A DNA stretch of 60,268 nt, the filler included, from Globobulimina sp. (taxonomy: Eukaryota), in the NCBI GenBank assembly GCA_003354225.1. It is 12 parts of 12 records of this genome, joined end to end, with 100 filler letters (N's around TTAATTAATTAA, not from the genome) between each part and the next. Parts side by side here need not be neighbours in the genome. Positions count along the whole stretch, not along the records: positions 20,155 to 25,091 come from PIVH01000835.1; 11 more parts are not named here. One strand, 5' to 3'. This document shows positions 2,467-46,222 of the stretch, in pieces. The notes under the pieces were generated by a model. That model had not been told where the DNA came from, ran no database searches, and saw nothing but the letters and a program-made list of their open reading frames with translations. The stretch's first letter is position 1; every line of letters starts with the position of its first letter. The position numbers and the translations under genes are program-made.

Positions 2467-2647
2467 TGCAGCATATCATTACTGTAATTTTGGAAAGGAT
2501 GGTCGCTGTGGTGTGTGTTGAACAGTTTTATGCTTCCGTCCATGTAGACACATAACAATATTAAATCAAATCAAAAACAAAAAGTTTTATATTTTATATT
2601 CGGGCAGACCCGGCTACGTAACATGTTGTGGCATCATTGGAAGTGCC

Positions 2648-4651
2648 ATGTTTTATATCCGCGGCTATCTGTTAGCATTTCCACCGCCAAACATATTGAG
2701 TGACATTAACGATAACAATGACATAAATATATATTATTTAGCATCAAATATATTACCCTTTGAAACATTTGTTCACATCGCATTATTATTTCTGGCATCC
2801 ATCACGTATTGGAAAGTACAAAATATTTTATCATTTTGTATGGTGAAATGCGGCTGTTTCTATCTTTTCATTCATTCAATATTTTCATTAATACTGCTTT
2901 CCAAATATTTCTACACATACTACGAAAGCACAAATTATGCCATGATCACAGTGCCATTGACCTTCATTTGCTGGTTTTTAATTGCCTCGTTTTTCGGTTT
3001 TGTAATTGTGAGCAAACAGCATGCTTCCAATCAAGAATTGAAATATAAATGGAAGCAAATCAAAAACACCAAGCACCAAAACAAAAACTACCAACAACTC
3101 AGCTCAGACGACGTCGACCACCAAAATGAAAACGAAAACGAAGCAGAAAGCCAACACCAATGCGACCAACAATTTATTAATCGGCAATATTGGTCGTATT
3201 ACATTTATGTTTTGCTGGGACTCAATGTTTTGTGGTATATTTCTTATTCGTTGGCTCAGTGCATCAATAATCTGTATTCGATGCGGCAATGCGGCCCAGA
3301 CTCGATATTGACAGTCGGTGCGTGGATTGCTGGCTACACTCAGTCATTTACGCAGTGCTTCCACCACGCCTTCATACTGTCGTGCATTTACAACATAGTG
3401 TTCCGGCCATGGTGCCACAACACGGTCTACATCGCCATTGGAGCCACGTTGACCTCTTTCTTGTTGCACGCCGGCTATTTATTGCTGTTTCTCTCCGAAA
3501 TGGAATGGAAATTCGAATTCGAGGCCGGCCACATTGCCACTTTCCACTCGCTTTCGTTGGGATTAATATTGAGCAAAACCGGCATCTTATCGCTTTTGCT
3601 GGTTTGCGAGCGCAAATTGTACCACTTATTGTCGCCGAAAAAGGAATACAATAAACACGAGTTGGTGCGCAAAAGACCCACAATGCTCGACATCTTATCT
3701 TTTGATGGCATGACTCGGAGACAAATGAAAGCTTTGTATGCCATTACAATGTCAAGCACCTTCTTCTTCGTCTCGATGCATTTGGAGATAATATTTATGT
3801 TATGCGCCTCGACGTTTTTGTTCAGAGAGGAGCAGAATCCGTGGCTCATTTTCAATGAGATGTTGTTGTGGTCCTTCCATCTCTGCACAGTGTACGTCCA
3901 CGCAATGGTGGTTTCGGTGCAGTTCAGCGACTCTTTTGTGAGAGCCTCGCGATTGTTGGCAAGCTTGAACGCCTCGCTCTTAATATTTGCAGTTTGCAAT
4001 ATAGGCTATGTTTCTTATGCGATTTATCGGAGCCCGACGGCGAAATATGTCTATTTGGACTACATTGTGATTGTGTTTTGTTTGCTGCGTTGCTTGGCTT
4101 CGTTTGGAGGCTGGATCGGATTCAGCAAATTAAAAACCATCCAACCATTTTCAATGCCGGTCTACAAATACGATGAGATTACGGAGAATGACAAGAAACG
4201 CACAAAATTGCCGGTGCGCTATGTCTGGGGCTACGCCGCCTTGTTGTTGCTGTATTTTGTGGCTTGTTTGTATCGCTTGGAGTGGAACGGCAATTTATTT
4301 GGGTTGCACGGCTGTAATTGGCCCATCATTTGCAGCGACACGCCGTTGTATGGATTATTATTTCACAGCGGTTTGTTAAACATGATATTCATTTTCGATG
4401 CCGGCATTTCAAAGCGATGGGCGCCGACCTGGGATCTGAGCCGCTTGTTTTTGGCATCCATCGCCATTTTGGGAGCTGTGCAAATTGTTAATTGCTTGCT
4501 ATTGTATTGCGGAGACATTTATGCCTACAATAAGTGTGAAATCGCATTGTTGCTCTCGTTGCTGGTTTGGATGGCTTTCTCTCTCAAAATGAGCACAAAA
4601 TTGCACGCATTGGACAATCTATTTCTGTACAAAAGGAAAATATTCATCTAA
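2648..4651 (+). CDS. Polytopic membrane protein of unknown family (667 aa, more than 10 hydrophobic segments)
   Basis: Long ORF with many TM-length hydrophobic stretches. A possible acceptor at 2607 suggests the true start may lie in an upstream exon. Confidence 0.75.
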   Translation: MFYIRGYLLAFPPPNILSDINDNNDINIYYLASNILPFETFVHIALLFLASITYWKVQNILSFCMVKCGCFYLFIHSIFSLILLSKYFYTYYESTNYAMITVPLTFICWFLIASFFGFVIVSKQHASNQELKYKWKQIKNTKHQNKNYQQLSSDDVDHQNENENEAESQHQCDQQFINRQYWSYYIYVLLGLNVLWYISYSLAQCINNLYSMRQCGPDSILTVGAWIAGYTQSFTQCFHHAFILSCIYNIVFRPWCHNTVYIAIGATLTSFLLHAGYLLLFLSEMEWKFEFEAGHIATFHSLSLGLILSKTGILSLLLVCERKLYHLLSPKKEYNKHELVRKRPTMLDILSFDGMTRRQMKALYAITMSSTFFFVSMHLEIIFMLCASTFLFREEQNPWLIFNEMLLWSFHLCTVYVHAMVVSVQFSDSFVRASRLLASLNASLLIFAVCNIGYVSYAIYRSPTAKYVYLDYIVIVFCLLRCLASFGGWIGFSKLKTIQPFSMPVYKYDEITENDKKRTKLPVRYVWGYAALLLLYFVACLYRLEWNGNLFGLHGCNWPIICSDTPLYGLLFHSGLLNMIFIFDAGISKRWAPTWDLSRLFLASIAILGAVQIVNCLLLYCGDIYAYNKCEIALLLSLLVWMAFSLKMSTKLHALDNLFLYKRKIFI

Positions 4652-8057: not shown

Positions 8058-9947
8058 TTACAACTCCGAATCACTTATTACAAATTCAAGTTTTCTTTTT
8101 TTCTTTTGTTTGAATATTTTTTTCATTTCATTTCTTATCCCGATTTGTGGTATCAACACAGCCCAATCACTCGACTCTAAATCATTCAATCTGTCATCTG
8201 TCACCTGATGATGTTTAAATACACCCAATACATTGACATAGTGTTTCAGACTTATTTGTTTCAATGTTTTCTCAATCCATTCATACTTTTTATTGCCATT
8301 TAATATTGCAACAGGAGAGAATGTGTCGACTGCCAAATTGTATTTCATTTCATCGCTTATAGCATTAATTGGATTTGATACTTTTTTTTCTTCTTCTTCT
8401 TCCTTGGCATCCTTGCCATCATTAAATGTTTCCAGAAACGGTATACGTAAATCCATATTATTATTAGTTAATATCTCTACTATTCCACTTTGATTATTAT
8501 TGCGATCATCTGTATCTGTATCAGTTTCAATGTACAATAAACTGCCAACATCGAACGTAAACCCATCTGCTGAATTATTCACAGAGTTATTTTTACGATT
8601 TTTAGTTTGTTTAACTTTGTGTATTTGTTCTTGTAACAATAAGCGATGATTATTAATATTATGATATGGATTATCGTCAATAATGCCATACGAATGTAAG
8701 TTTTTATTTGCTATTTTGAGTGAGTTTAGGTTCATATTATCGCTGATTGGATTCCCCCAGCTCCAATTCCCAGAGGTCTCGTCCGGATCCATTACGATAG
8801 CTTCATACATTCGAGTTTGAGCATTCACGATTTCAATAAAAGTGGTGAATGATATATGTTGGATTGCATCTTCACTTTTTAATCCAAACTCATCCGAATT
8901 CCATGAAAACTCTGAAACGGAGCTGTTGTTCAGTCGAAATGTCTCCACTTTTGCGTTTGCATAACTTGTTCCATTGCATTCCACCAAAATATGCCATAAC
9001 ACATCAATGGATGTAATATTAGGAGGCAATGATAGTAAATGTAGCCGAATGACTAACTCATGCGTCCAGGCATATACTTGGGCAAATACTAAACACCAAT
9101 TATTATCTAATAAGGGTGACGAATATATCTTTTTTTCAGGATTAAGTGATGGATTTAATGTCCATTTATACTCGATGCGTTTACACATTCTTGTATTTGA
9201 ATGATAGACACTTAATATATTACGTTGTGTGTCTAAAATATCAACATGTAATAAGTCTAAATTTCCAGTGAATTGAACAGATTCAAATGATTTTAAATCT
9301 TCAGCTCTAAAAAATGCAGAATGGTCTAACTCTGTTAATATTTCTATATTATCCACCATAGCAAATGAAGTATTAATGATGGATTGAAATTGTTTGTTTA
9401 ATGGTTTGCAATAAATCGTAACCAAAGCAACAATTTTAGCGGTTTTTTGTTGTGGTAATAGTGAATGTGTGAAGTTAGTGTAAAGGTACAAACGTTGAGA
9501 GTTTCCTGCAAAATCCCACGAACTGTTTGACTCTTGTTTTTTAATAATAATTTGAAAATTCATATGGTTGCAACAAAATATTTTGCTTTTATAATAATGG
9601 TATTTATTTAGATGGATAGATTGCACATCGAATGAAAACCCAACCAATCCAAACATATTAAGACATAATGCCAATATATCATTTGGTACTGATTTAGAAT
9701 GGCTCATTCTTCCATATCCAAATACTAAATATTCTCTGTCAATTTTCGATGAAATAACAATTTCGTTTTCTGTGGATGTCCATTTCTCATAATTACAAGG
9801 AGGTGTTATATCCCAATCCCATGTAAAATCTATGTTAAACAGATAATTTTTGTATCAATGCAGGTATATATCATCGCCTTAACTCGAATTTACGTTGGAA
9901 TTTCCTGGTACACCAGAAATACTCGAATCAAAATCCCAACCAGACAT
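8058..9947 (-). CDS. Hypothetical protein with MATH-like beta-sandwich region(s) and C-terminal SAM-like domain
   Basis: ORF 8058..9707 extends upstream in frame (YLVFGYGRM). A putative first exon starts at ATG 9947, with an intron at ~9830..9883. The C-terminus WIEKTLKQI...FKHHQVTDDRLNDL...LIPQIGIR is SAM-like. Confidence 0.65.
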
Positions 9948-15117: not shown

Positions 15118-17342
15118 CTCCAACGATTTGTGTCCGCGGTCTACGAAATCGCCCAAAAAGATGTATTTATAGAAAGAAATGTCACCGATGTTGACGTCGG
15201 GGTAACCGAACGATTTGAACAGCGACATCAAGTCACCTAACTGGCCATGGATGTCGCCGAAGACCTTGACCGGGCCTTCGATTCGGATCAAAGTGGCGTC
15301 CGCCTGGATCAAGGGCAGAGCGCGATGGATGATACGGATTATCTCATGCGGCTCCAATAAAAATGAGGCATCCGGGTCCAATAACGACTCATCGAAATTC
15401 AACAAGATGCGGTCAATGAACTGCCAATGGATGTCGTCGTCGTACGCACCATCGATAGTTTCGCCGCGTATATCCTCGTCCAAGCCGGTGATCTTATGGT
15501 TGGCGGCTTCGCTCTCAAACATGGCAAAGGTGGAGCTTTCAAACATGTGCACCGGCAAAGATTTGGCGCGAACCGGCGTCTGCACTATGCTCACTCGCTT
15601 GGTTCGGTTCTTTTTCACGGTCGAAGTGGGCCGCTCGTCGACGCTGCTTTCTGTACTTTTGACGGGATGCAGGTGCTTCTGGTTCAATTGGCGGATCTCC
15701 CTCGTGGCGGCCGCCACTTTTTTGGTCTGTTGGTCTCTCCGCATTGGAGTCACGTCGCAAAAGGCGCGATTTCCGATGGTGCTGTGGCTGTTGTCTATGG
15801 ATTTCTTTTTATTCTCCTTATTGGCGGTGCTCTTTTTGTCGGTGTCTTTGAAGATGGGCGTGTTTGTAAATAAACACTTATGATTCAAGATTTTGCACGG
15901 TTGGGAAGAGAATTTGAACGAATATAACTGATTGGAACACTTTCGCGTCGAAGGGGAGTAGCCGCCGAACACGAACAACCGCTCCAAAATCTGGTTGTTG
16001 CAGCCCAAACACTTGAATTCCTTCAAACTTTTATGCGACTCTAATAAGGCAGTGGCGGGCCGACAGGTTCCCGACGGTTTGTTGTTGTCATTGGTGTCGG
16101 TGGTCTGGCGGGGATTTATCACTTTGATTTGGGTGCATCGGCCGCAATGCTCAGAGGTCACATTGCCGCCCAATAAATGCGTGGAGGCCTTTTGCGGCGC
16201 AAAGATAATTAAATCGCAATTTTTGGACAGGAAATGCGAGGAATGGTGTCCTTTGGATAAGGCGTTGGAAATGCCGGGGACCATGTCCTTATCGCCCAAT
16301 TTGAAGAATTTGCCGGCGCGCAAATCTAATTTGAAGATGTCGGCCGGCGCGGGGTTGGCCTGCGTGTCGCGTACACCTCCTAATAATAACATTTGTTGCT
16401 GCGAGTCGACAAAGGCGGAATGGAAGGCGCGCTGCATGGGATTGCGCCGCGTGGCCAACTCGACCCAGCCTTGTTTGTGGAGGTCTAAGCCCCATAAATC
16501 GTTGAAAAATAAGCTGCCGCGCTGTCCTCCGAATAATAGAAAGGAGCCTTCTTTCCAGGGACATAGCGACGAACCACGACGGCCGCACGGCCCTTTGGGT
16601 AAATGTATACTTTCGATTTTTAATAAATTGTTGTTGATGGACTGCGAGGCGGGAAAGGAGCTGATGTTTTTCACTACGATCAAATCGTCCAAATAGGTGT
16701 CTTTGCATTTACCGCCAAAGATTAAACATCGATCGCCATTTTGGCCAAAAGAGACGGCGGCGTGGTCGGCACGAGCGACCTGTACAGGTTTGTATGTGTT
16801 ATATGTGTTTGTTTGCAATCGGAAATAGAGAATAAACAACAAAACTGGATTGAAGTTAGATTTTATATATGGTTTGTATTCGTTTACTATGTCTTTGCCT
16901 AAAATTTTGACCCATTTTAAGGTGCTTAAATCCAATAAATACATATCGTCCAAATATTGTCGCGATGCTAATAAGGAGGATTCACCAAAGGTTACTAGTA
17001 ATTTGCCGTGGATGTTATTGGTTTGTTGCTTTTCTGTGTTAGCAGTGTTATTTGTGTTGCCTAGCGAGTTAAAGTCGATGCCATGAACTGTCAATGTATG
17101 ACCACATCGAGCCGATGGTCCTTCGTACTCATTGACCGTTGGAATCCATTCCCATTCGCCAGTGAATTGTGCTTTAGAATTTAAAATCAAATTAAAGGAT
17201 ATCTGAAAATAAAAATAATTCAAATCGTGTTGTAACTTGAATATCGTTGTTTCAGTGTTTGATGTTTCATTGTCGAGGTACCATGTAATTGAACTGAGGA
17301 AGTGGAGACTAACAATGTTTTTTTAAAAACTATGTCAGGCAT
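15118..17342 (-). CDS. PPKL: Kelch-repeat Ser/Thr phosphatase (PPKL/BSU1-like PPP family), 3'-truncated
   Basis: Kelch motifs (PSARCGH, LIFGG, LLFGG, RAFHSA, LFVFGG), then [16 protein letters not shown]...GDI...[16 protein letters not shown]. Probable in-frame intron 16780..16887 and a putative upstream exon from ATG 17342. Confidence 0.9.
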
Positions 17343-17727: not shown

Positions 17728-20054
17728 TTATACATCATTATTCCCATCAAAATTATTTTTCTTTGGTTTATGTTTAAATGAACCAAAATATGCATCGTTT
17801 TGAAACGTTTGTCTTTTTTCTGTGGGCAATTCACTTTGTTGTATCTCTTTTTCTTTATAATATTTACTATCAACTGTTAACATTTGAGAAAGAGAAACAT
17901 TATCAATAATCTGTCTATTTATAATTTCGTCATTCTGCAATAATATAAATTTGTCTTGTACCGTATGTGGATGATGCGGAGAACAACAGCAACGATGAAC
18001 AGACGAACAATTCCATCCCAAATTATTCATATTATGCATACCTACTTTATTCAATAATAACTGCTGAGATAACATCACTGATTCTTTATATTGCAATTCT
18101 GATAAACTTTTAATGGCCACGTCCCTATCACTCTCACTTCCAAGTTTAAGAAAAGCAACACCCAAATCCTTATAATACTCATTCTGTCGATATACTGCGT
18201 CTTTAACGAACTTATCATTATGTTTACCATCAATATCATATAATTCGTATTCTCTTTCTAAATACTCACATAATTGCTGCATTTTCTGCATTGATAGATT
18301 TGAGATCTTTAATGATTTGTTGTCATATAAATTATGCATTGCTTCCTTCCTCAAAACACCAAACTGATTCATTTTGTTTCTGTATTGATCATATTTGCCG
18401 GTATCGTTAATATGATTTTGTAATTCTTTCCAATCTTCATTTAGATGCAACGTATTACAAAATGGATGCGAATGCGAATGACTTACACACTGCAAATCGT
18501 TTGAACAGTGTTTAACAACATTCGTTTTTGCGATATTAAAGGATTTGAGCACAGCGTGTGAAAATGGGATGGATCGATCTAATATTAATCGACGAAGAGC
18601 TTGGTAGAAATGTCTGGTAAATGTAGTTGCTGTGTTGGCCCATATTTTAACAAACGGATGAATACATATCACGTTTTCAACATATTTGCTAAATATTTTA
18701 CCTAAAATGTAAGAATGACAGCCATTTAATATTAACAATTTTATTTGACATTCTTTTTTTGACTTCAAATGTTTCTTAATAAGCTTTGAAATCGGGTCTG
18801 TTTTTTGTTGTTTAATATCAACGGAATATAGTTTTTCTTGCATTTTGCCCATAAATCCAACTTGTTTCTGCGTATCGCAATCGCCGTTGCATATGGTTCT
18901 AAATTGTATATCATAATGGTGATGAACATCAATTTTTGCTTTAATTTTATTAATTTCCTTCGTGGCTTCACGCAGTGAATATTTATTTGCAAAGCGGATT
19001 ATATGAACATTCTTTGCTGCGCCAGAGCTAAAATCTAAAATTATCGGTATGACTGTGGATTGTTTGAGTGTTGTCACTAATTCGTTTTTGAACTTTGATA
19101 CTTTTTGAATTAATTTTTTAAGTTTTTCTCCCGGCCCATAATCGGATCGATTAATATTTATGGGAACGATTTTAAGCTCACGCGTTAATTCCTGAATATC
19201 ACCAAACTTTATTTGCGTTCTTCTTTCTTCATTGATACAATGCAATGCTTTTGATAATAATTTTGCTAATATTTTCCAATTAAATTTATAAATATTATTA
19301 TTATACTCACCATTAATGTGCTTATACTCAGCATCAATCTCAGCATAAATGTGTTGAACGTGCCGGTCACTTTGATATAATTCGGCGAATTGATATTGAT
19401 TAATTGGGGAATGCGGTGGTACAAATCGTTTGTTTTCATATTTCCCCCAAAATATTTCAATGCATCCAATTATTGGATTTGCTCGATAATAACAACCAAA
19501 ACGATCCAATATACATTGTAAAATTGCTTGATATATTTTGTTGATTTTAGTATCGTGCAATAAGGCAATGCATAATTTATTGGGATTTGTACTGTTTTTA
19601 TGTTTAATTCCATATTGAACAAAATGGTTAATTTCCATCTCAAAAAATATGGCAATGGCAGCAAAATATGCAGAATATTTAGGATGTTCATCGAGTAAAT
19701 ATCTCAACGTTTGTTTCTCTTCTAAAGCGATTTGGAATTCATTTCGGTTATTTATTTTTTGATCTTGGTGGGTGCCATGAGTTGAAATATGAACAATTGG
19801 TGGTGATTCAAGTAATATTTTTTCAAAATTTGCTATTGTCAGCACAGAACGGGAAAATTTAAAACCTGATTTTTTTATATCTTCTTCTTCTGTATCTAAG
19901 CCAAAATTTGAATCATAATTGATTCCCAAAAATCCAATCTCTAATTCGTTTGCTGATTTGTTGATTGGCCTTTTCTTATTACTGACAGATTTGGTGTTTG
20001 ATAGTCCGGTCGTAGTCGTGGTATTGTTCGGTATATTTGTACCTAAATCGTGAA
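17728..20054 (-). CDS. CHAT/caspase-fold protease-like protein (5'-truncated)
   Basis: PPIVHISTHG...IALEE and LLILNGCHS...VENVICI...FTRHFYQAL...SFNIAK match CHAT His and Cys dyad motifs. The frame is open to the contig edge. Confidence 0.7.
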
Positions 20055-20156
20055 NNNNNNNNNNNNNNNNNNNNNNNNNNNNNNNNNNNNNNNNNNNNTT
20101 AATTAATTAANNNNNNNNNNNNNNNNNNNNNNNNNNNNNNNNNNNNNNNNNNNNTT

Positions 20157-23100
20157 TTCCACAGTGATCCGCAACTTTGTGGTGAACAAAAACTACGACC
20201 GTATGAATTACCAATAGCTGGTAATAAATACAAAGGACTGTCTATATTTGAACAGAACCATTGCATACTAAATAGACAACATAGAATGCATAAAATATAC
20301 AGCAAAATATCGATATCCGATGTAATGCTAAAAATACCACAAACAGAGTTACAACAAAAAAGAATAAGTAAGACAAAAGATAAGAATATATCCGACATAT
20401 CCTGGCACTGTAAAATCAATAAAACAATGCACAAACAGAACAATGCCAATGAATTGGAGCCGGAAATATGTAAATCACACAAATTGGAAATAGAACAGAA
20501 AACAGTGACAACAGAACAACACAAATTATGCATATTTAAAATTAATATATTGAAATCTTGCAACATCTGCCCACTTGCTCTAAAACAAAAGTACATAGAC
20601 AGTAAATTGAACAGACACAAAAATACACAAAATAAAAAAAACAACAACAAAAAACCTCGCAGTCAGCAAAGAAAATCAAAAAAGCATCCTCAACACAAAA
20701 AAAGCAAAAACAAAACAACACCAAGCCATAACAAAATGTCAACAAAAAAAAAGAAACAAACAAAGCTACAAATTGGAAATAGTGGGAAGAAACAGAAAAA
20801 CAAAAACAAAAAAAACACAAAAAACACCAAAAACAACAAAGGAAAACAAAAGAGACCAATACAACAAACATTAAAAGAACATGAAATCAATGATCCAACT
20901 CCTCCAACAAAACGACGTAAAACAGATGATAAAAGAGCGAATTTACGAGCAAATCTATTACGTGACAGAGAAATTGCAAGAAATGCAGTGGCACCAATAT
21001 CATACAAAGATAAATTATTACACAACAAAGACAGTCAGCAAAATAAGAATGAGACACCAATACCTGTTACGCCTCAACAACAACCACCAAAACCAAAAGC
21101 GCCACCTCCAATTTATGAAGAATCATCATCTGATCCAGACGATGATGTACCAGTAAATCAATTATTAACGCAAAGCAAAAACAAAAAGAAAAACTCCGAA
21201 AAAATACCAAAAAAACAGAAACCAAAATTAAATTTAACAAACATAAATAGCGCACAAAAACCAAATGATCCGCGCACACCAATAACACCGCGTGCAAATC
21301 CATTAAATGAGCAAGATTTCAACAACTTGAAATACCAAAACCGAAAACTCACCGAACATAACAACTATTTAGATCAAAAATTAAAGACACAAAACCGACA
21401 TATCATTACGCATCAACAAGAAGCAAAAAAACAATATGACAAATACAAAAAAGAAGAAAAGCAAGTATCATATTTACGCGCCTCCAACAATGCATTACAA
21501 CGGAAAAATGAGGAATTTGAAGAAAATTATGAAGACGCCACAAAACTACGCAAGCAATTAAATGAATCAATGGAGACGGCGGCATCCTACAAAACAAAAA
21601 TTGCGCAACAAAAACAGGCATTGAAAAAGCAAAAAGTCATTCATGAGATTGAGGTAAATGATAGGAAACAATGGGTTGATGCATACCATCATATCAAAGA
21701 AAAAGAAAAAGCGGATGAAGATAAAAAAAAAGCCAATGAAGCAAAATCAAAAGAATTGAAGGAAAAAGAGCAACAATTAAGAGCAATGAACACAAATTTG
21801 ATGCAACGCGAAGAAGAGCTCAAAAATCGGAAAAAAACAGAAATTTCTGCAATGGATATGGATAACAAACAAATCGATGAATTAGAAATCGCGAATTCGC
21901 AACTTAATGATGAAATTATTCGACAGCGGACAGAATACATACAAAAAATGCAAGAAAATGAAGCGAAATTTAATAATGACATCCAAGAATTAGTCAGAAA
22001 ACACAACGAAGAAATAAAACAATTACAAAATGAACAAAGATCACCATCGATCATATCCAACCAAACCGAAGCATTTTTAACAATGCATAGTATCAATGAA
22101 AATGATGAAAATGATGAAAATGATGAAAATGAAGAGGATGATGACAATGATGATGATATGAATGAGACAGAATCATCATTCATCGATAGCACAGACAACA
22201 CATCAAATTCCTCAGAAAACAACACAATTATTACACCAACTCCGCAACAAATGTATCAAACACCACTCAGTGTACTTGGCATGCAATTCCTACCACGTTT
22301 GGGAATACATATTCCTGCAACATTAAAAATTGAAATTGCAAAATGTCCGGTCAATTACCAGACAATTGGCATAAATAAAGAAAGAAAATTAAAGGAAATT
22401 GACCTAAGCCACGCGACAGAAACCAAAAAGATATTAAAAAATGCATGGAAATTAGAAAATAAAGCAGTATACAACTGGTCAACGCATGCATTACCATTTA
22501 ACATCAAACCATGGACCTCATCCTTTGACGGAGTATATTCACTATCACCAGACAAGAAAACGAATGATTTTAAAATTTATTTAAAAAAAAAAGACAAAGC
22601 AACCGGTGAGAATATGAGTCTTTCCGCCAATGCGCAAGAAATAACCACTGAATGGTTGGATATCAGCAAAGCAATAACGGGAATTGAAGCAAATGTCATA
22701 TATGCCATACAATTGGAAGCAGATAAATGTGATGATCCAATATCATATGAAATAAAATTGGACGACATAGCCGATCAAAATGACGTAATGGCGATTGTAT
22801 TGAACACAAAAACATCCATCAGATACAAAATTAATCAACATCGACTCCAAACTGGTGGCCGAGGATATGATAAATCCGCAATAATCCTACCTACAAACAC
22901 ACAATCAATACAAATTGTATCCACAGCCAGCAAATTGAATGGAAAACCAAAAATTGATGCATCAGAACCAGAATTTGTTGTAGAATTATTCATTATTTGT
23001 AGCAAAAAAAGCGAAATTATGCCAACATATGAAGGAAAATATGATATTGCCAAATTAAACGAAAAAATCCGCAATGAACTCGTCACAGAAAAAGCAACTG

Positions 23101-25091
23101 ACACTGGGCTCCAACGACGAATCCAGCGAAACAAAGACCGCATGAAACTCCGTCCAAGGTATGATTCTTACACTAAAATCACAATAACACACACACGCAA
23201 CCACTATACAACAGAAATAACAGTAGAAATACCAACAATTAATGAAAAAACACAACAACACAAAAGACAACATAAATCCATTTATTTTTATGTACAAAAT
23301 ACACAAATTTATAATATATTATATATTTTACTATATTTAGTTTATTTTTTTTTATTACCCCAAAAAATACAGACACAACAACAGATAAAGCAATTAAATT
23401 CAAATAAAAACAAAAAAAAACAAATAAAAATTAAAATAACCATTATTATCAAAGAAAAAAATACATTCAAGGATGCCTCTATGATAAACAAACTATTCAC
23501 AAAGCATTGCAATCCTCCAATCATAGATGACCTTTTTTTACTAATTAGAATAATATGTCTCCCCCTTTTTTGCATATTATTCCAAAAATTTACACATTTT
23601 TGTGTCAAAATCAATGTATTTCTTTATAATATAAAAAGAAAAATTGACATCTATCTTGTTGACTGCCTCTGTGACATTAATTTTATACTTATATTATGTT
23701 TTTTTGCATGTATATATATTGTGTTGTTGTTATTCATTAATTTTCAAATATTCAAATATATTTATCACCATTTAACACATATCCTTGCACAAAAACAATA
23801 TAATTCAGTAAAACAAAAAAATAGCTTGATTCGACTTAACTACTATCAAAATATAAAAAAAAAGAAAGACGAACGGTATAAATATAAAAAACAGAAAATA
23901 CAAAAAAAAGAAGAAGCAACAAATTCAATACATCAATATAATCCATACAGAAAATACACAATAAATAAAATCCAATCTCACAAACAGCCATTAACAGGAC
24001 ATACAAGAAATGGACAATGCAAACCACTCTCCTCCTTACTCAATCTCATAACTCTCTGTGCCTCTCCACTGACCCACACTAAACTTCGTTTACGTACATT
24101 TTTTGCAAAAATATTACAAGTCCCATCAAAAATTGCCTTTGCAAATAAATCCTCAATTGATAAAAATGAAATAGCAGATGATACAACCTTCTCTGTTGAT
24201 AAATGTTCAATCACTTCATTCTTTCCTACATCAAACGAAAAAATTGTTTTATTACAGATTGATAACACATATTCACCTCCCATGCAACGTTCCATCTCCA
24301 TTGAAATTAATTTGCTATATTTAAACTTTAAAAGCCGCGTAAGTATATTATATAATCTCTCTACCTCTTCACCATCCGATGTATCCCAATCCTCTTTACT
24401 CTCCACGCGCTTTGAACAAATTACAGCTAAACAAAGCACATTCAAAATCAATACACAAAACAGCCCTAAAAAAATACAACGCATACCCAAAAGCTTTCGA
24501 ACTTTCTTAACATGCATATTTAATGAAATACTACAAACATATCGATTCTGTGCATGGGTAAAAACCAATACTTGGTTATATTCATACAAAATTGGCAGGA
24601 TTTTCTTAACCAAAAAAACGAGATATCCAGTCAAATCCAATGAAACTGACTGCATTTGCTTTGTACGACATTCCTCATTTGATTTGATTTCATACATTTG
24701 CTTCGCACGCCATCCCCTATACTCAATCAATAATCGCTTATTTTCACCAGATAACCAATGCCACATCGTTTTAAATCGTATATATCCACGCCAATCACGA
24801 CCATGCGTAAAATACTCAACTCCCTCCCTATGGCTTTCCCACAAAGAGAATTGCTCCACAATACAGGTTGGATCTGCTAATACCAATTCATGCAAATCAT
24901 TTGGACCATACCCAGTTGGCCACAACACAATCCCAGATACATTACTATCCCATACTGATAACTCATCCACTTCCTCAACATCAACGGTCTTAACCTCAGC
25001 CATGCACAAAAACCAAATATTCTCTGTAAATATAAAAAACACAAACTTCACAAAAAACCCACTTACCAAAAATAATCAGTATCCGCCACAA
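20157..25091 (+). CDS. Contig-spanning open reading frame (about 1645 codons, both ends truncated): Lys-rich region, long coiled coil, acidic patch, globular domain, TM-like segments
   Basis: ORF track 20286 runs into the spacer and the frame is also open upstream to 20157. The region ~20736-23160 is clearly protein-like. The + strand is strongly A/C-rich. Confidence 0.7.
23978..25003 (-). CDS. Hypothetical protein encoded antisense inside the giant ORF; spliced
   Basis: ATG 25003 (MAEVKTVD). In-frame intron 24427..24486 (GTATGC...TTTAG, 60 nt). Upstream intron 25024..25066 (GTAAGT...TTTACAG). Composition is globular-like. Confidence 0.65.
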   Translation of the reverse strand: MAEVKTVDVEEVDELSVWDSNVSGIVLWPTGYGPNDLHELVLADPTCIVEQFSLWESHREGVEYFTHGRDWRGYIRFKTMWHWLSGENKRLLIEYRGWRAKQMYEIKSNEECRTKQMQSVSLDLTGYLVFLVKKILPILYEYNQVLVFTHAQNRYVCSISLNMHVKKVRKLLGMRCIFLGLFCVLILNVLCLAVICSKRVESKEDWDTSDGEEVERLYNILTRLLKFKYSKLISMEMERCMGGEYVLSICNKTIFSFDVGKNEVIEHLSTEKVVSSAISFLSIEDLFAKAIFDGTCNIFAKNVRKRSLVWVSGEAQRVMRLSKEESGLHCPFLVCPVNGCL

Positions 25092-25191: not shown

Positions 25192-28100
25192 ATCCTCCAT
25201 CCAATCCACGGACCCGTAATATAAACCCATTTAATGCTAACCTCAACAATCACATCAACGATCCCATCATGTTTGTAGCGGCCAAACCAAGAAAAGAGGA
25301 ACATTGTGACCATCTTCTGCTTCCGCCTCCCCCCCACTAGAAGCCGCTTGCAATGACTCGGAGGTCTGGCTACACCAAAATCATATTGAAGGTATACCCT
25401 GTTTCAACCCAGATCGTCTCTCTCCGCATGAACCCGAACAAAATGAGATGTTCCAACTTGAACAGAAGTCCATACAAAACATAACAGATAGCGATGATAA
25501 TGACAGCATAATTGACGGCATAACTACCAACACTGTAGGCAACCAAATCAATCCCCCCAGTTCACCGCAAATCCATTCTTCTCCAGACAGTGCAGACCAT
25601 GATGCAGACACAAAACGTCTCAAATACTCATCAGTGGAAGCTGCAATTATTGCCGCCTAGGTTCCATTATCTCGATCTTAAAAACACCAGACGGTAATAC
25701 ACCGAACCAATACCGCCCAATAACCCTCTTGCCCCTTATATTCAAAACTTATGAACGCCTGATATTGTGGAGAATGAATATTGACCATAAGTTCAGGAGA
25801 AACCTGCACATCCTCCAAGGTGGCAACAGAGCAAAACGTGGGGTTCCAGAGCAGATTGGCACTCTCCATTTGGTCTCTGAAACTGCTAAACACCAAAATA
25901 AACCCCTTTACTGCGCCTCCCTTGATATTAGAAAAGCATTTGACACCGTGTGGCGCAAAGGACTATTATATAAATTGCACCACCATTTTGATATTCCAAT
26001 CAATCTCTGCAAAATAATCAAAGCTATCTACAACAATTCACAATCAGCCATCCGTGATATCCCATTCATCACTGAACTCTTCAAATTGCACAATGGTGTC
26101 CTTCAGGGCTCTGTCCTCAGTCCCATACTGTTTGCTGCCTTTATAAATGACATGATTGATATCCTCCAATCCTCCAAAAAAGGTGCCGTTTCCCCTGATC
26201 GTGACCGTTTAATCGCTTGCATATTCTATGCTGATGACGTTGTCCTCACAGCAAATACCATTGAAAATCTTGCTTCTTTGCTAAAAATATGTGAGGAACA
26301 CAGCCACCATTGGGCGTACACATTTAATTCAAAAAAATGCAAAGCCATAATACATAACGACCCCTCCATTCTCACCAACAACACCCACCATCATAGCAGC
26401 GCGCAGAAAACCAAACTAACACAAGAGTACCATAATAAAATCAATCAGCCAACACAGAAACAAGCCCCGATGGTCCTAATCTCTGCTCTCACCAACAACC
26501 AATTGATGGCCATTGACATTGACGGCACAGTCTGCTCTTACAATGCAGAGGAAATCCCCCCTGAAATATTAACTCCCTTTAAAACACATTGCAGTTATTA
26601 CCAAAATAAAATATCAAACAAACCGTACCACATCATTTGGGACAATATAATCCATGATAATAGCTGGACCATCTCCAAAATGCACCATTTATGTCTCATG
26701 AATGGCAAGCCTCTGCAGATTGTCTCCTATCTGAGATATCTCGGCGCCCACCTTTGCTCGCATGATGCAGACAACATAGTATCGACAAAACGCACAAACA
26801 AAGTGTTTCTCAATAAGCTAGACCAAAAAGCCAAACTGCTATCACAGTTAGACTTCAACCATGATTTTATCTCCTTAAGTGACAAAATACGCATTCTAAA
26901 AACCTTCTATTTAGTTTACACTGAAATATTTGCTCAAGTACTCGACAGCAAAATTATTAATTTGACTGCTGCTTTAGACAAACAAATCCGCACAATAACG
27001 ACACAAACACAAATCAAAAATTTCGTATTTGAGCAGTTCTCAATCTTTGCAGGCATCCCTCCCCCTACGAACGATGGGTTGTATTGAAACTAGCTTTCTA
27101 TTGGAAGCTTTGCAAAGGAGAACCCATTTCATATATGCATAAATGGAATAACCTCCCAAACATATCCGATTACACCCTCTACAATCAATACAAATCCTTG
27201 AAACAAAAATGGCTGCCAAATCAAACCAAAATAATCAACAACATCTCAATCAGCGCAGACCCCTTCAATGACATACTCCATTCATCTGACCTAAGACCGT
27301 TGGTGGTAGTAAAACAACACCGAGAATTGGTTGCTACCTTCCACAATAAACACCCTTTCAATATCCTCCAGCATCATCTTTCTGACTACAAAGCAATGAA
27401 CACATTTGAGGTGCAGGACCTTGAAAATTACATAAAGCAACATATGATTATCCAATATCGCGAATTATTCTACGCTTTCAATCAAAAACCATCCCATTGT
27501 AACCTTTGCATGACACACACTCCAAATCCAATTGAATACCATCTCTGTATTGATTGCCCGCGACTGAGCACAATGAGGTATTCCTATTGGAACCATTCAA
27601 GACTGCCACTATCAAAAATTGGCTCTAAAATAAATCGCTGTCACAATCAAATTTTCATGCAACGAGTTATTGAATACTTTTCTGATGTCCGCCCCAACCC
27701 AGAGATACTATGGCTGTTAATATGCGGAGCAAATTTCTATATGATGAAAAAAACAATAATTTCACTTACCACCACCAGTCCATAGATATATCTCATCCCA
27801 GGAACACCTTTTACAAACACATTGTCTCCCTATCCCACCAATTCCTTGATTACGTGTACAGAATACATAAAAACAAACTCACCATCAAACACTGCACCAA
27901 TAAATACAGCCCAATATATGACCGCAATATAATCCACCACATCAGAAATGATACCATAAATGATTGGTACAATTATAAACACAAAATCAGACCCACAGAC
28001 ATACTAATCTCCACTGACTCCTCCAGCGAAGACAACCGCACAGGAATTGGAATAGCAATAAGAAACTACAACAAAATCCATTTCTTTGCTCAACCTATTG

Positions 28101-28790
28101 GCGCCCAAACGAACCATCACGGAGAGCTCCTTGCCATTGGCAAAACCAAATTCCTTCTGAAACACCACCAAATAGATTGCACTGATAGACGTGTCATCCT
28201 GTTCACTGATTCAATGACCAACTTTGTGTCGCTCATTGTCACCCCAAGAAATATAAAAAAATTAACATATGCAGGCCTCTTCAGAGAAACACAAAAACAC
28301 ATTATTGATAATAAAATCATCCTTTGGAAGATAAAGTCACATACTGAACCAGAGCAGCAAGTATATAATCAAATAGCTGACAGATTAGCGACGGTTGGAA
28401 GAATGCACCCCAAAAATAACAATCTCATAATCCCCGGCATAAACTCTACAAATCATGCTATTTCCAAATCGTTTGATATCCCCTTTGGATCCAGCGATGG
28501 ATCCTTGTTAAACCTCACGGGGATGTTCCTGCAATCCGTGAGCCTGGAATCAGACCTCCGGCCTGATTGAATTTTGTACCACTACTACTAGAGCTTTTAC
28601 TAACACATAACAAAGATGTATGGCAATATAAAAAATAGATATGGAGAAAGATGGGAAAGAGGATAAAGATGATAATTCAGATTCAAGCAGTGGCAGTCTA
28701 AGCCTGTCAGAATATATGGAAACAATGGACTGAACAACAAAAAAAAATGTGAATTTGCGCACAATATGACAAAAAATAAAAAAAAAAATA
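25192..28790 (+). mobile_element. Decayed non-LTR retrotransposon (LINE): RT, CCHC knuckle, RNase H
   Basis: RT motifs YRPITLL, LDIRKAFD, GVLQGSVLSP, YADD and RYLG; CNLC-x9-H-x4-C at ~27498-27557; RNase H-like ISTDSS, NHHGELLAI, LFTDS, WKIKSH and NQIADRLA. Stop at 28570 and an A-rich tract at 28772-28790 that may be the 3' end. Confidence 0.92.
25603..28570 (+). pseudogene. Frameshifted retrotransposon pol (ORF2) fragment
   Basis: Three track ORFs (25729, 27084, 27710) are collinear parts of one pol, broken at a C-run near 27060 and a TAT/ATG-A-run near 27740. No endonuclease is seen upstream. Confidence 0.85.
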
Positions 28791-38200: not shown

Positions 38201-40182
38201 TATGCATTCGACTGCGAATATTGAATTACAAAACAGATTAATGTCTTCAACAATATTTTCCCACTTTTTACTCATTGCAGGATAAACAATGGATAAACTG
38301 ATGGTGTTCAAAATAATTACACATAAAATGAACATTGAAAAATAGTCAGAAACAACAACTGCATTTATCAACTTTACAAATGTGCCATGTTGATTGATAT
38401 AATAAACCCAATCTGGCTCTTCATTCGCTGAATGGATTGCAGTCCGCACTAAAATCTCGTTTTCCTTTTTTTGCTGCCTTGTTCGCAGTTGTATGTTTTT
38501 GATTTCTTCACTGTTTTCATCATAAAATTCATTCGGATTTCGAAGGTCTGACATAGACACATTCAGAAAAGACGTATTGTTATTTTTGTTAATCATTGCT
38601 TGTTGGTCTGGTTCTTCTTGTTTTTCGTCATCAATGACAAATGAATACAATCTCATTCTGGATAACGATGAACCAATTTTGTTGGAACTATTCCGAGCAG
38701 CAAACATTGGAAGATTGCAAATTTTGGGCGGTAAAGTTGGTAAATGTTTTGCTGAAATGGTTACTTTCTTCGATGTATGTGTTATTGTGTTGATATTGTA
38801 ATTTTCGTCAGTTATTACAAAATCATTGACATTCACATCGCACTGATCTGAAACTGTCAATCTGTACATTGATTGCACGAATGATTTTGATCCTACTCCC
38901 AATTTTCTGTTCAAACCAATGGAGGATTTCGTCCTTGTAAGCCTTCTTTGATCGTGGTGGTCTTTCTTAGAATGAAAGTTTCGATTTGCATTTGCTGCTT
39001 GAATGAATATACTCAGTGCTGGTTCTTTGCTGTTTGAACCGCCATCAATTGATGTCCAAATTTTATTTGTTTCTAATTTGGCGCGTGCTCTATGATTATT
39101 TTCTTCTCCCTCAGCGGCATTATTGTCTTTGTACTGCTCCATCTCAGCCCTGTAAACAGACTCAATAACAGCTATATAATCATATATTATAATTATAATT
39201 ACAAAGATAAATAAATAAAATAAATAACTAACCTAAAAATAAATTGATGACAAAGAATCCAACGATTAATGTTAGTAAAACGAAATATATCCAACAAAAA
39301 GCTGAACCGGTGGCTTGAAGCATATATTGAATAGAAACCCATCCTTTTTGTGATGTTGTTTGAAACAAAACAGTATATAATATACAGCATACAATACACT
39401 TTGGTATTTTAAGACATAACGTAAGAAATGAAAATAAATACCTTCTAATGATACAGTGATGAATACGTTTAACATCGCATATATAAAATTGTCAAAACCG
39501 GTTAAACCGTTATTTGGATTTGGTGCAATTTGTAAACACCAGGGGAAATCTGTGGGACATCCATTATTTTTGTTAGTTCCAACATCATAGCAAAGGTTCT
39601 CTCCATTTACAAAATGCAATTCATTGTTTAACCACAGCTGTTGCCCATTGTTGTCATATTCGGTGAAGTTATGGCTGAAACATTGTTGATGTAACAATCC
39701 ATTAAAGAGCTGTACGCCAAACATTGCAAACAACACAAAAAAAAACAATGATAGTAAGGCAACCTCAGTTAAACCCCGAATGGATAATAAAATTGTGGTA
39801 ATCAATAATTTCAATTTTTTTATTTTTGTGACGGTTCTTAATGGACGTAATACTCTCAATACTCTGATTGCTGTTAAATTATTGGATTTTGCGTCAAGAG
39901 GAAGGAACTCAATCCACGAAGTCAGCACAATGACAAAGTCTAATAAATTCCAATTATCTCGGAAATATCCAACATGATGCTTACTATCTGCCTCTTTAAC
40001 AAATAAACCATTACAAAACATTTTAATCACCATTTCAACCGTAAATATCATACAAAAGACAGTTTCCGAGACGTTGACAATTCTATTTATTTAAATTAGT
40101 ATTTTATAAATATGGCTCTTTTCGTAAAAACGTTACCTTTTTGAATTGTACTCTGTTTGTTTGCTTTGATTTATAACTAGTC
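35254..40182 (-). CDS. Four-domain voltage-gated Na+/Ca2+ channel alpha subunit (both ends truncated)
   Basis: Four 6-TM repeats with S4 motifs (IRVLRVLRPLR, FRCFRAIRVFK, LRAFRPLR, LRLFRIGRLLR), WNxFD motifs, P-loops and a C-terminal EF-hand-like WSCFD. Introns 40083..40136, 39344..39441 and 39172..39232. Confidence 0.95.
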
Positions 40183-46155: not shown

Positions 46156-46222
46156 CTGTCGCCTCAGGATTTGAACCTGAATCTTCTGGATTAATCCAGT
46201 GCTCTGCTTGAGCTATGCGGTC
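46156..46222 (-). pseudogene. tRNA-like cloverleaf with 4-nt anticodon loop and broken acceptor stem
   Basis: Paired D, anticodon and T stems with a canonical GGTTCAAATCC B box. No 7-nt anticodon loop and no GG in the D loop. Confidence 0.75.

Follow-up and report, generated by a model that had tools for sequence, protein, structure and literature searches.

How can a contig of 4.9 kb, of which only about half resembles conventional coding sequence, be read from end to end in one frame without a single stop codon? The question is raised by contig 5 (PIVH01000835.1; positions 20155-25091) of the Globobulimina sp. assembly GCA_003354225.1, one of 12 contigs of about 4.9 kb each that were joined with N spacers to give the window of 60,268 bases analysed here, along which all positions are counted. 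Tentatively, the answer favoured is that the forward (plus) strand may be translated as a single unbroken frame at least 1,645 codons long, and that the parts flanking a conventional gene would be under selection against termination and not for the peptide. For comparison, contigs were taken from four runs, of which X1, X2 and X3 belong to one sample and X4 carries another organism label and belongs to another study; contigs only were compared, and all figures on run contigs and variants come from the pieces listed and are to be read as at-least values. The features of contig 5 were as follows, the introns being candidates from sequence only.

20157-25091, plus strand: stop-free frame 1,645 codons long, whose codons begin at multiples of 3 and which runs off the contig on either side.
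20155-20560, no strand assigned: member of a repeat family, with 0-5 differences per 76-177 nt in X2, X3 and X4.
20157-20735, plus strand: upstream stretch of 193 codons (segment 1), stop-free, with no other coding signal by periodicity, codon-usage or variant analysis.
20736-23158, plus strand: conventional protein-coding part by periodicity, codon usage and variants, with an ATG at 20736 in an A-rich context.
N-terminus of the plus-strand protein: lysine-rich, with a motif resembling a nuclear localization signal (NLS), PPTKRRK (by eye).
About 21300-22060, plus strand: long charged, helical, coiled-coil-like stretch (by eye).
22096-22153, plus strand: acidic 9-nt repeat.
22239-23158, plus strand: C-terminal domain of roughly 300 amino acids (aa), matching no known family.
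23159-23214, plus strand: candidate intron of 56 nt, GTATGA...ACAG, with other acceptors at 23223 and 23226 (65 and 68 nt).
23160-23978, plus strand: AT-rich stretch of 273 codons (segment 3; GC 0.23), stop-free, with no other coding signal on either strand.
23978-25003, minus strand: gene-like antisense open reading frame (ORF) of 341 aa, with ATG at 25003-25001 and TGA at 23980-23978, open from 25075 (365 codons).
24427-24486, minus strand: candidate in-frame intron of 60 nt, GTATGC...TTTAG, inside the antisense ORF.
25024-25066, minus strand: candidate intron of 43 nt, GTAAGT...TTTACAG, just upstream of the antisense ATG.

The openness of the frame was first measured against chance. None of the 1,645 codons was a stop, while the other plus frames contained 87 and 152 stops and the minus frames 121, 35 and 77. 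Divided by region, the two other plus frames held 11 and 20 stops over 20155-20735, 42 and 81 over 20736-23160, 19 and 23 over 23161-23980, and 15 and 28 over 23981-25091, with zero in the open frame each time. Expected numbers were obtained from a first-order Markov model applied to four segments, with 2,000 simulations per segment. For segment 1 (20157-20735), 13.3 stops were expected and the simulation minimum was 3; the corresponding values were 47.5 and 26 for segment 2 (20736-23159), 21.4 and 8 for segment 3 (23160-23978), 17.8 and 6 for segment 4 (23979-25091), and 101.7 and 72 for the whole frame. Not one of the 2,000 simulations reached the observed zero in any segment, so that all four are significant individually. 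Every 300-nt window likewise had no in-frame stop, compared to 1-21 in the other frames, and no frame of the other 11 contigs was free of stops, the lowest counts (5 and 9) both lying in the frames of long real genes. The initial annotation had described one plus frame as open from 20157 to 25091, and had noted by eye that 23160-23980 holds several tens of stop triplets in the other two frames only. Both descriptions were borne out, with none in 1,645 codons where composition predicts about 102, and 42 off-frame (19 + 23) against zero in-frame triplets in the AT-rich stretch. The count against a composition model that it had called for gave the result above, with zero stops reached in no simulation.

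Independent assemblies contained the same sequence. X1 contigs (Logan) matched 21753-23309 and 23447-25056 with 0-1 differing letters, and an assembler artefact is therefore unlikely, the sequence being present in the reads. Among the X1 pieces listed, none bridged 23310-23446, a low-complexity stretch; either side is significant by itself. Depth in X1 was even along contig 5, at about 20-34, and a second, haplotype-like variant formed a bubble at roughly 2:1 depth. Over 20.6-25.1 kb, depth was 20-34 in X1 and 0-4 in X4 outside low-complexity bins, contig depths being poor copy counters. None of the 40 single-letter differences listed, out of 43, created an in-frame stop, and both indels were multiples of three. 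As only about 6% of random changes would make a stop in these segments, the lack of stop-making changes among 40 variants is uninformative by itself. By the same figure, the openness cannot be a relic, and ribosomes would be reading the frame now or would have done so very recently. One short X1 contig at the right end resembled 24988-25056 (6 differences) before diverging, and by eye would give an in-frame TGA at 25062. It was set aside as a look-alike A-rich stretch from elsewhere (cf. repeat families D5 and D14) and not as the continuation of the locus.

Coding signals beyond the absence of stops were concentrated in segment 2. The codon-position composition statistic was 110, compared to 22.5 for stop-purged random nulls, and none of 500 nulls was as high. 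A codon-usage score derived from 16 further long ORFs in the window, and likewise set against 500 stop-purged nulls, was 0.188 versus 0.056, again with no null as high. An early codon-model test was dropped because stop penalties dominated it. Sliding windows placed the codon-position signal at about 20877-23216 and about 24117-25016. Among the segment 2 variants (20931-22703), 13 of 18 were synonymous (P about 3e-5, assuming that a quarter of random changes are synonymous), and the two indels, +6 at 21277 and +18 at 22095, kept the frame. The longer of these lies at the 9-nt repeat ATGAAAATG (22096-22153, 6.4 copies), which encodes an Asn/Glu/Asp run and varies in length, the X1 contig being 18 bases longer. 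The region of about 20.9-23.2 kb is a gene of the ordinary kind, specific to its lineage and subject to purifying selection. The earlier remark that a conventional protein is suggested only over about 20736-23160 agrees with periodicity, codon usage and variant synonymy, which all point to segment 2.

Beyond the absence of stops, segments 1 and 3 were without coding signal at the whole-segment scale. For segment 1, 431 of 500 stop-purged nulls had a codon-position chi-square at least as high, 318 of 500 matched or exceeded its codon-usage score of 0.026, and 13 of its 15 variants (20274-20479) were non-synonymous, leaving 2 synonymous. For segment 3, 171 of 500 nulls were as periodic and 287 of 500 reached its codon-usage score of -0.004. 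Within segment 3, TAY codons were as frequent in frame (22) as off frame (23 and 17), while TAR was absent in frame and occurred 17 times in each of the other frames. In-frame CAA, GAA and TAT were in excess by roughly the number of the missing stops, and in a 10-nt repeat present in three copies (23401-23430), the middle copy was missing the very T with which an in-frame TAA would arise. The flank signature is one of pure stop purging: both the 5' 580 nt and the AT-rich 820 nt that follow the gene resemble sequence free of constraint except for the loss of in-frame TAA, TAG and TGA. 'Non-coding-like' is used here to mean indistinguishable from stop-purged random sequence, which is not proof of non-coding status. 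The translation of segment 3 contained three F/I/L/Y-rich runs resembling transmembrane (TM) segments, flanked by basic residues, and an AT-rich palindromic region at 23296-23337 resembled a convergent 3' end.

Only the first 400 nt or so of contig 5 belonged to a repeat family, which was multi-copy in X2-X4. Depth over 20155-20560 was far above that of the rest of the contig in these runs; in X4 it was 50-93, compared to 0-4 in the gene body outside low-complexity bins. In X1, the upstream contig carried a partial tandem duplication with an offset of 201 nt, a multiple of three, and the X1 upstream letters (23 + 30), read by eye, added no stop to the frame. The 406 nt of 20155-20560 folded somewhat better than shuffled sequences (z = -2.5) and matched no Rfam family. 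At 20201-20231 (also 20203-20257), a GTATGA was found inside a near-perfect hairpin, GTATGAATTACCA / TGGTAATAAATAC, with AACAG about 55 nt later; in donor and in length, this GTATGA...AACAG matches the candidate intron at 23159. A 20-base pattern taken from the repeat had no match in the JGI metagenomes or prokaryote genomes. Its one IMG/VR match was to a contig of 60% GC with only 22 bases in common, and was put down to chance.

The right-hand part of the contig (segment 4) is open on both strands, and the initial annotation had remarked that the frame stays open through an antisense gene; the 365-codon minus ORF (23978-25075) is indeed present. Third codon positions of the minus ORF and the plus frame face each other, that is, the two frames are staggered. 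The codon-position composition of segment 4 was 26.2 versus a stop-purged null of 9.7 (2 of 500 nulls as high). The minus ORF had a codon-usage score of 0.072, reached by none of 500 nulls and close to the control mean of 0.067 (270-codon windows of the 16 ORFs), whereas the plus frame over the same bases scored -0.035. In Atlas, the minus ORF gave a weak beta-propeller lead (0.92; recognition 1530), and the plus reading gave no usable match (recognition 895). Codon usage and Atlas would favour the minus strand as the coding strand of segment 4, both indications being modest, and no relative was found for either reading. The 43-nt candidate intron would join an upstream exon in frame, and the minus gene may therefore begin beyond the contig end. 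No part of the plus-strand protein was found to be matched by the minus ORF as an inverted copy.

In this phase, a plus-strand stop arises from the minus codon pairs NNY|TAN and NNT|CAN. Although 45% of the codons of the minus ORF end in a pyrimidine, none of its 12 TAN codons followed such a codon, and although 41% end in T, none of its 15 CAN codons followed a T-ending codon; the joint probability of both avoidances is about 3e-7. The same pairs occurred at 29 of 51 and 18 of 59 sites in the ion-channel gene of contig 8, and in six control ORFs of the window this antisense phase contained 1.6-4.9 stops per 100 codons. When the minus protein was kept and its synonymous codons were redrawn, 4.5 plus-strand stops were expected and 2 of 2,000 draws had none, while shuffling the minus codon order gave 11.5 expected stops and no stop-free case in 2,000. 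From the two nulls together, part of the stop avoidance would lie in the minus amino-acid order itself. This agrees with the staggered phase, in which synonymous changes are not always enough, the minus residue order accommodating the plus frame. Conversely, with the plus protein of 23982-25073 fixed, 9.1 minus stops were expected and none of 2,000 redraws was free of them, so that the minus ORF is no simple by-product of the plus protein.

Strand composition set the plus strand apart along the whole contig. Its base frequencies were A 0.45, C 0.20, G 0.12 and T 0.23, with GC skews of -0.21, -0.10, -0.40 and -0.46 in the four segments and AT skews of +0.12 to +0.46. The excess of C over G continues through the minus ORF, which as a result has a G over C skew of +0.44, the most extreme of 30 ORFs. 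The reverse transcriptase (RT) ORFs of contig 6 had GC skews of -0.28 to -0.30 and AT skews of +0.13 to +0.21, and the coding strands of the window's other 26 ORFs had GC skews of -0.18 to +0.33. The likeness in A/C skew to the long interspersed nuclear element (LINE) of contig 6, pointed out at the start, is descriptively accurate; at the sequence level, contigs 5 and 6 are not similar. An A-rich sense strand with C over G is a retroelement-like feature and is present, but is suggestive only. The contig 6 element itself (25603-28570) showed a LINE-type RT (RVT_1, E 2.5e-29) spread over three overlapping ORFs in three frames, with C over G on the sense strand, and is probably a decayed, frameshifted copy. 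In contig 1 (1672-2475, minus strand), an A/C-rich, low-complexity half rich in K/N/Q/P/H had an AT skew of +0.24 and a GC skew of -0.18, similar to 20157-20876; such A/C-rich stretches may be common in the genes of this organism.

Searches for relatives and domains of contig 5 were negative throughout. Against Pfam at E up to 0.1, both strands gave only three chance-level rows (E 0.027-0.046), below the cut-offs, and no RT, integrase, polB or capsid; PHROGs gave no match, nor did Rfam, even at E up to 1. The 808-aa plus-strand protein had 0 relatives in a word search of 5.8 billion proteins, its 307-aa C-terminal domain had 0 matches by HMMER against 1.84 billion representatives, and 0 relatives of the minus ORF were found in word-index searches at near and longer lengths. 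The 620-aa plus-strand protein had 0 relatives in IMG/VR and the JGI metagenomes, GenBank phages contained no relative, and PDB sequences returned nothing meaningful (two rows at E about 0.75). Single-sequence AlphaFold models were unusable, with a mean predicted local distance difference test value (pLDDT) of 34.0 for the minus ORF and 31.9 for the plus-strand C-terminal domain. Contig 5 also had no similarity to the other 11 contigs except for one 44-nt low-complexity match.

Taken as a frame that ribosomes may read through, with flanks under selection against termination alone, the locus fits in four respects: purging in the flanks is pure, the flanks are aperiodic, the minus ORF codes better than the plus frame opposite it, and the plus-strand skew overrides the minus ORF. 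Selection for uninterrupted translation, which the initial annotation had proposed, stands in the sense of stop avoidance, which extends to sequence lacking any further coding signal and to the stretch opposite a gene-like ORF. The possible donor GTATGA that it had pointed out at 23159 is present, with three candidate acceptors. On unspliced RNA, the frame would be presented without a break: a ribosome starting at or upstream of 20736 on RNA that retained the 56-nt candidate intron would have to meet no stop. Potentially, termination far from the 3' end would expose the RNA to decay; alternatively, more coding sequence might have to be reached past the contig end. The A/C-rich, G/U-poor plus strand, with its poor self-pairing, would suit such an RNA.

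Several observations weigh against this reading. In other runs, copies of the initial 400 nt show a gain of 34 nt and a loss of 61 nt, each of which would break the frame; the two together would restore it, but the shifted stretch between them has a stop, and not every copy of the 5' repeat keeps the frame. No orthologous copy of 23160-25091 was recovered from the contigs of the four runs. With any of the three acceptors, splicing of the candidate intron would produce the same frame shift and end the protein at the TAA at 23240-23242; if it is spliced and the gene ends there, the downstream openness is unnecessary. Aperiodicity is also not peculiar to the flanks. Of 106 windows of 360 nt in the window's other long ORFs, including the ion channel, 25 were also aperiodic, and aperiodic runs of about 700 nt occurred in three orphan ORFs (17728-20052, 1-1479 and 8058-9854). 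The codon-usage scores of segments 1 and 3 (0.026 and -0.004) lie within the control range, at its low end (mean 0.067; 10th percentile -0.001). As the coding tests are weak, both segments could be real low-constraint or membrane-spanning protein. A junk tail of at least 640 residues would be costly, and in a non-exhaustive literature search, no such selection or frame was found described for cellular eukaryotic DNA.

A more specific form of the same reading can be put forward, although it is unlikely. In it, a eukaryotic DNA locus, whether cellular or mobile, would make an RNA whose translatability over its full length is preserved for the benefit of the RNA and not of the peptide, for example as protection from decay or silencing. 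Stops would have been purged even from spacer and from the strand opposite a neighbouring host gene, whose codon pairs and amino-acid order would have adapted, giving a DNA-encoded counterpart of the narnavirus ambigrams in a staggered phase, which would be the harder one to achieve. The initial annotation had gone further in assigning the frame to a giant retroelement or endogenous virus. This received no positive support, since no RT, integrase, polB, capsid or terminus and no relative were found, depth was even and the repeat was confined to the first 400 nt or so; the contig is cut at both ends, and enzymes of a selfish element could for that reason lie beyond them.

The alternative that survived best is an ordinary giant lineage-specific protein gene, in which a low-complexity N-terminus, a coiled coil, a beta-rich domain, a membrane region (23160-23978) and a tail would follow one another, with the minus ORF as a by-product of a permissive antisense phase or as a nested gene. 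It is possible, and nearly as likely as the favoured reading. One cause would then account for all four open segments, yet the coding signal did not run along the whole length: it was found over 20877-23216 on the plus strand, while segment 4 fitted the minus strand better, and no recognisable relatives or domains were found. The three TM-like runs with basic flanks would suit a membrane region, and other long ORFs have aperiodic runs of comparable length (the 25 of 106 windows above), K/N/Q/P-rich, A/C-rich stretches (1672-2475) and F/I/L/Y/C-rich membrane segments (2522-4651). On the other hand, segments 1 and 3 had no signal beyond stop avoidance at the whole-segment scale, where the tests are low-powered, and cysteine made up about 3-4% of the flank translations. 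Even, single-copy-like depth with a second haplotype-like variant is in keeping with such a gene, as is an upstream duplication offset by a multiple of 3 (201 nt), but segment 1 is multi-copy elsewhere and 13 of its 15 variants were non-synonymous. Antisense ORFs of 197-244 codons lie opposite real genes in the window, which provides a precedent for the minus ORF. This one is no simple by-product, however (9.1 stops expected, none of 2,000 redraws free of them), and would have to be a 1-in-1,000-or-rarer event or a nested gene. Codon usage there favours the minus strand, with the plus frame (-0.035) below the control 10th percentile (-0.001).

An improbable explanation is that ordinary parts lie side by side: a plus-strand gene ending at the TAA at 23240 after splicing, a convergent minus gene and an upstream repeat, with the openness hitch-hiking or historical. 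The gene model would be a standard one, with an ATG at 20736, an intron of 56-68 nt and the same TAA whichever acceptor is used; intron-like signals are present on both strands, and the AT-rich palindrome at 23296-23337 is of the kind expected where convergent genes end. However, 13.3, 21.4 and 17.8 expected stops (segments 1, 3 and 4) would be left unexplained, and openness that had been inherited would be lost by the time the sequence had diverged by a few per cent, with about 6% of changes making a stop.

Still less probable is an origin in a co-assembled AT-rich bacterium or phage, either as a giant gene or as a bridge by which ribosomes stay on the transcript of an operon while passing a gene of opposite orientation. 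Orphan proteins on an AT-rich contig could be read in this way, but no PHROG, phage-record or IMG/VR relative was found, by eye neither ATG was preceded by a Shine-Dalgarno-like motif, and promoter-like (26 versus 21.0) and terminator-like (1 versus 2.7) counts were at shuffle level. The NLS-like motif and the spliceosomal-type intron signals (by eye), as well as the haplotype-like bubble at roughly 2:1 depth in X1, also argue against it. An assembly or amplification artefact, whether a chimeric join or a protein-guided assembler extending open frames only, is very improbable: no listed Logan piece crosses 23310-23446 and both contig ends lie at graph branch points, but each of the X1 Logan contigs is by itself free of stops when tens would be expected, and none of the other 11 contigs has a zero-stop frame.

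Known systems resemble the locus in part. Non-LTR (long terminal repeat) retrotransposons of the LINE type have an A-rich sense strand, a coiled-coil ORF1 protein and, in mouse L1, tandem 5' untranslated monomers of about 200 bp. Contig 5 similarly has an A-rich sense strand with C over G, as in the contig 6 RT ORFs, and a coiled-coil-like protein after a repeated 5' stretch with a 201-nt tandem offset. Unlike a LINE, it has no RT or endonuclease domain and no similarity to contig 6, its depth over 20.6-25.1 kb is single-copy-like, and the region where ORF2 would be expected to start lies antisense to a gene-like ORF. Low-complexity regions in giant proteins of AT-rich protists are fast-evolving, usually hydrophilic and codon-periodic. 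A long orphan ORF with A-rich codons and in-frame variation in repeat length (+6, +18) is shared with such proteins, whereas the contig 5 flanks are aperiodic and rich in C/F/I/Y, and one of them overlaps an antisense ORF.

For ambigrammatic narnaviruses, a reverse ORF opposite the gene that encodes RNA-dependent RNA polymerase (RdRp) has been described (DeRisi et al. 2019, PMC6884476). The narnavirus cases known to that study are codon-aligned, in the only phase where, according to it, synonymous changes always suffice (PMC6884476); further accounts of narnavirus ambigrams are given by Retallack et al. 2021 (PMC8316113) and in 'Polymorphism of genetic ambigrams' (PMC8155312). The analogy drawn by the initial annotation is a loose one. 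Shared features are a long frame free of all three stops, for which translation as an end in itself is the leading explanation, and two strands that are both open, in contig 5 over 1.1 kb. By whole-segment tests of low power, segments 1 and 3 may also be without constraint on the peptide. The differences are that contig 5 is DNA with intron-like signals, which point to cellular DNA, and has no RdRp and no viral relative; that its frames are staggered, with third positions facing, and not codon-aligned; that its two-strand openness covers 365 codons and not the whole molecule, the matching minus frame having 35 stops; and that 466 of its open codons fall in DNA that is non-coding-like whichever strand is read.

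The other contigs of the window contained eukaryotic genes in the standard code with few introns, among them the following.

Contig 8, minus strand: four-domain ion channel in one ORF of 1,326 codons, confirmed by Pfam.
Contig 4, 15118-17322: Kelch-repeat ORF running into a calcineurin-like phosphatase domain.
Contig 2: IndA-PfkB fusion.
Contig 2: ORF resembling RCC1 repeats, by eye only and not run against Pfam.
Contig 6: LINE-type RT.

A non-standard genetic code was rejected for contig 5, as the 1,326-codon ion channel reads in the standard code and a code change cannot produce an absence of stops. Mitochondrial origin was also rejected, in-frame TGA being absent and Trp being encoded by TGG. 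The ion-channel gene contains an apparent in-frame intron of 63 nt (39233-39295), whose branch site, TACTAAC, is yeast-like and whose acceptor is TTTTTAG. As this intron has three in-frame stops, ordinary introns of the organism are not stop-free. In contig 4 (15118-20054), an orphan ORF of 774 codons (17728-20052, minus strand) lies upstream of the Kelch/phosphatase ORF (15118-17322) in the same frame. The 405 nt between them hold all 9 stops of that frame, and the pair may represent either a single gene containing an in-phase intron or spacer or two separate genes. In contig 2 (6684-6705), the IndA-PfkB ORF stops about 20 nt short of the following long plus-strand ORF (the RCC1-like one), which is in another frame, indicating extremely tight gene packing or a short frame-shifting intron. 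At 46164-46215 (contig 10, minus strand), Rfam gave a partial tRNA (33.6 bits, model positions 8-63 of 71) and ARAGORN found no tRNA in the window; the match may be a tRNA fragment or a tRNA-derived repeat.

In a few RNA viruses, long frames that stay open with no constraint on the peptide suggest that the traffic of ribosomes in itself protects or serves the RNA. If an RNA is indeed kept translatable here for its own sake, the principle of translation for the RNA would be wider than a few RNA viruses, reaching eukaryotic DNA, spacer-like sequence and the antisense of a gene. The locus would then be a tractable case in which to ask what translation does for an RNA, how two staggered open frames are maintained and what this costs a neighbouring gene. 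If it encodes a giant orphan protein instead, it serves as a warning that one third of a genuine ORF may, in AT-rich protists, be statistically inseparable from stop-purged random sequence.

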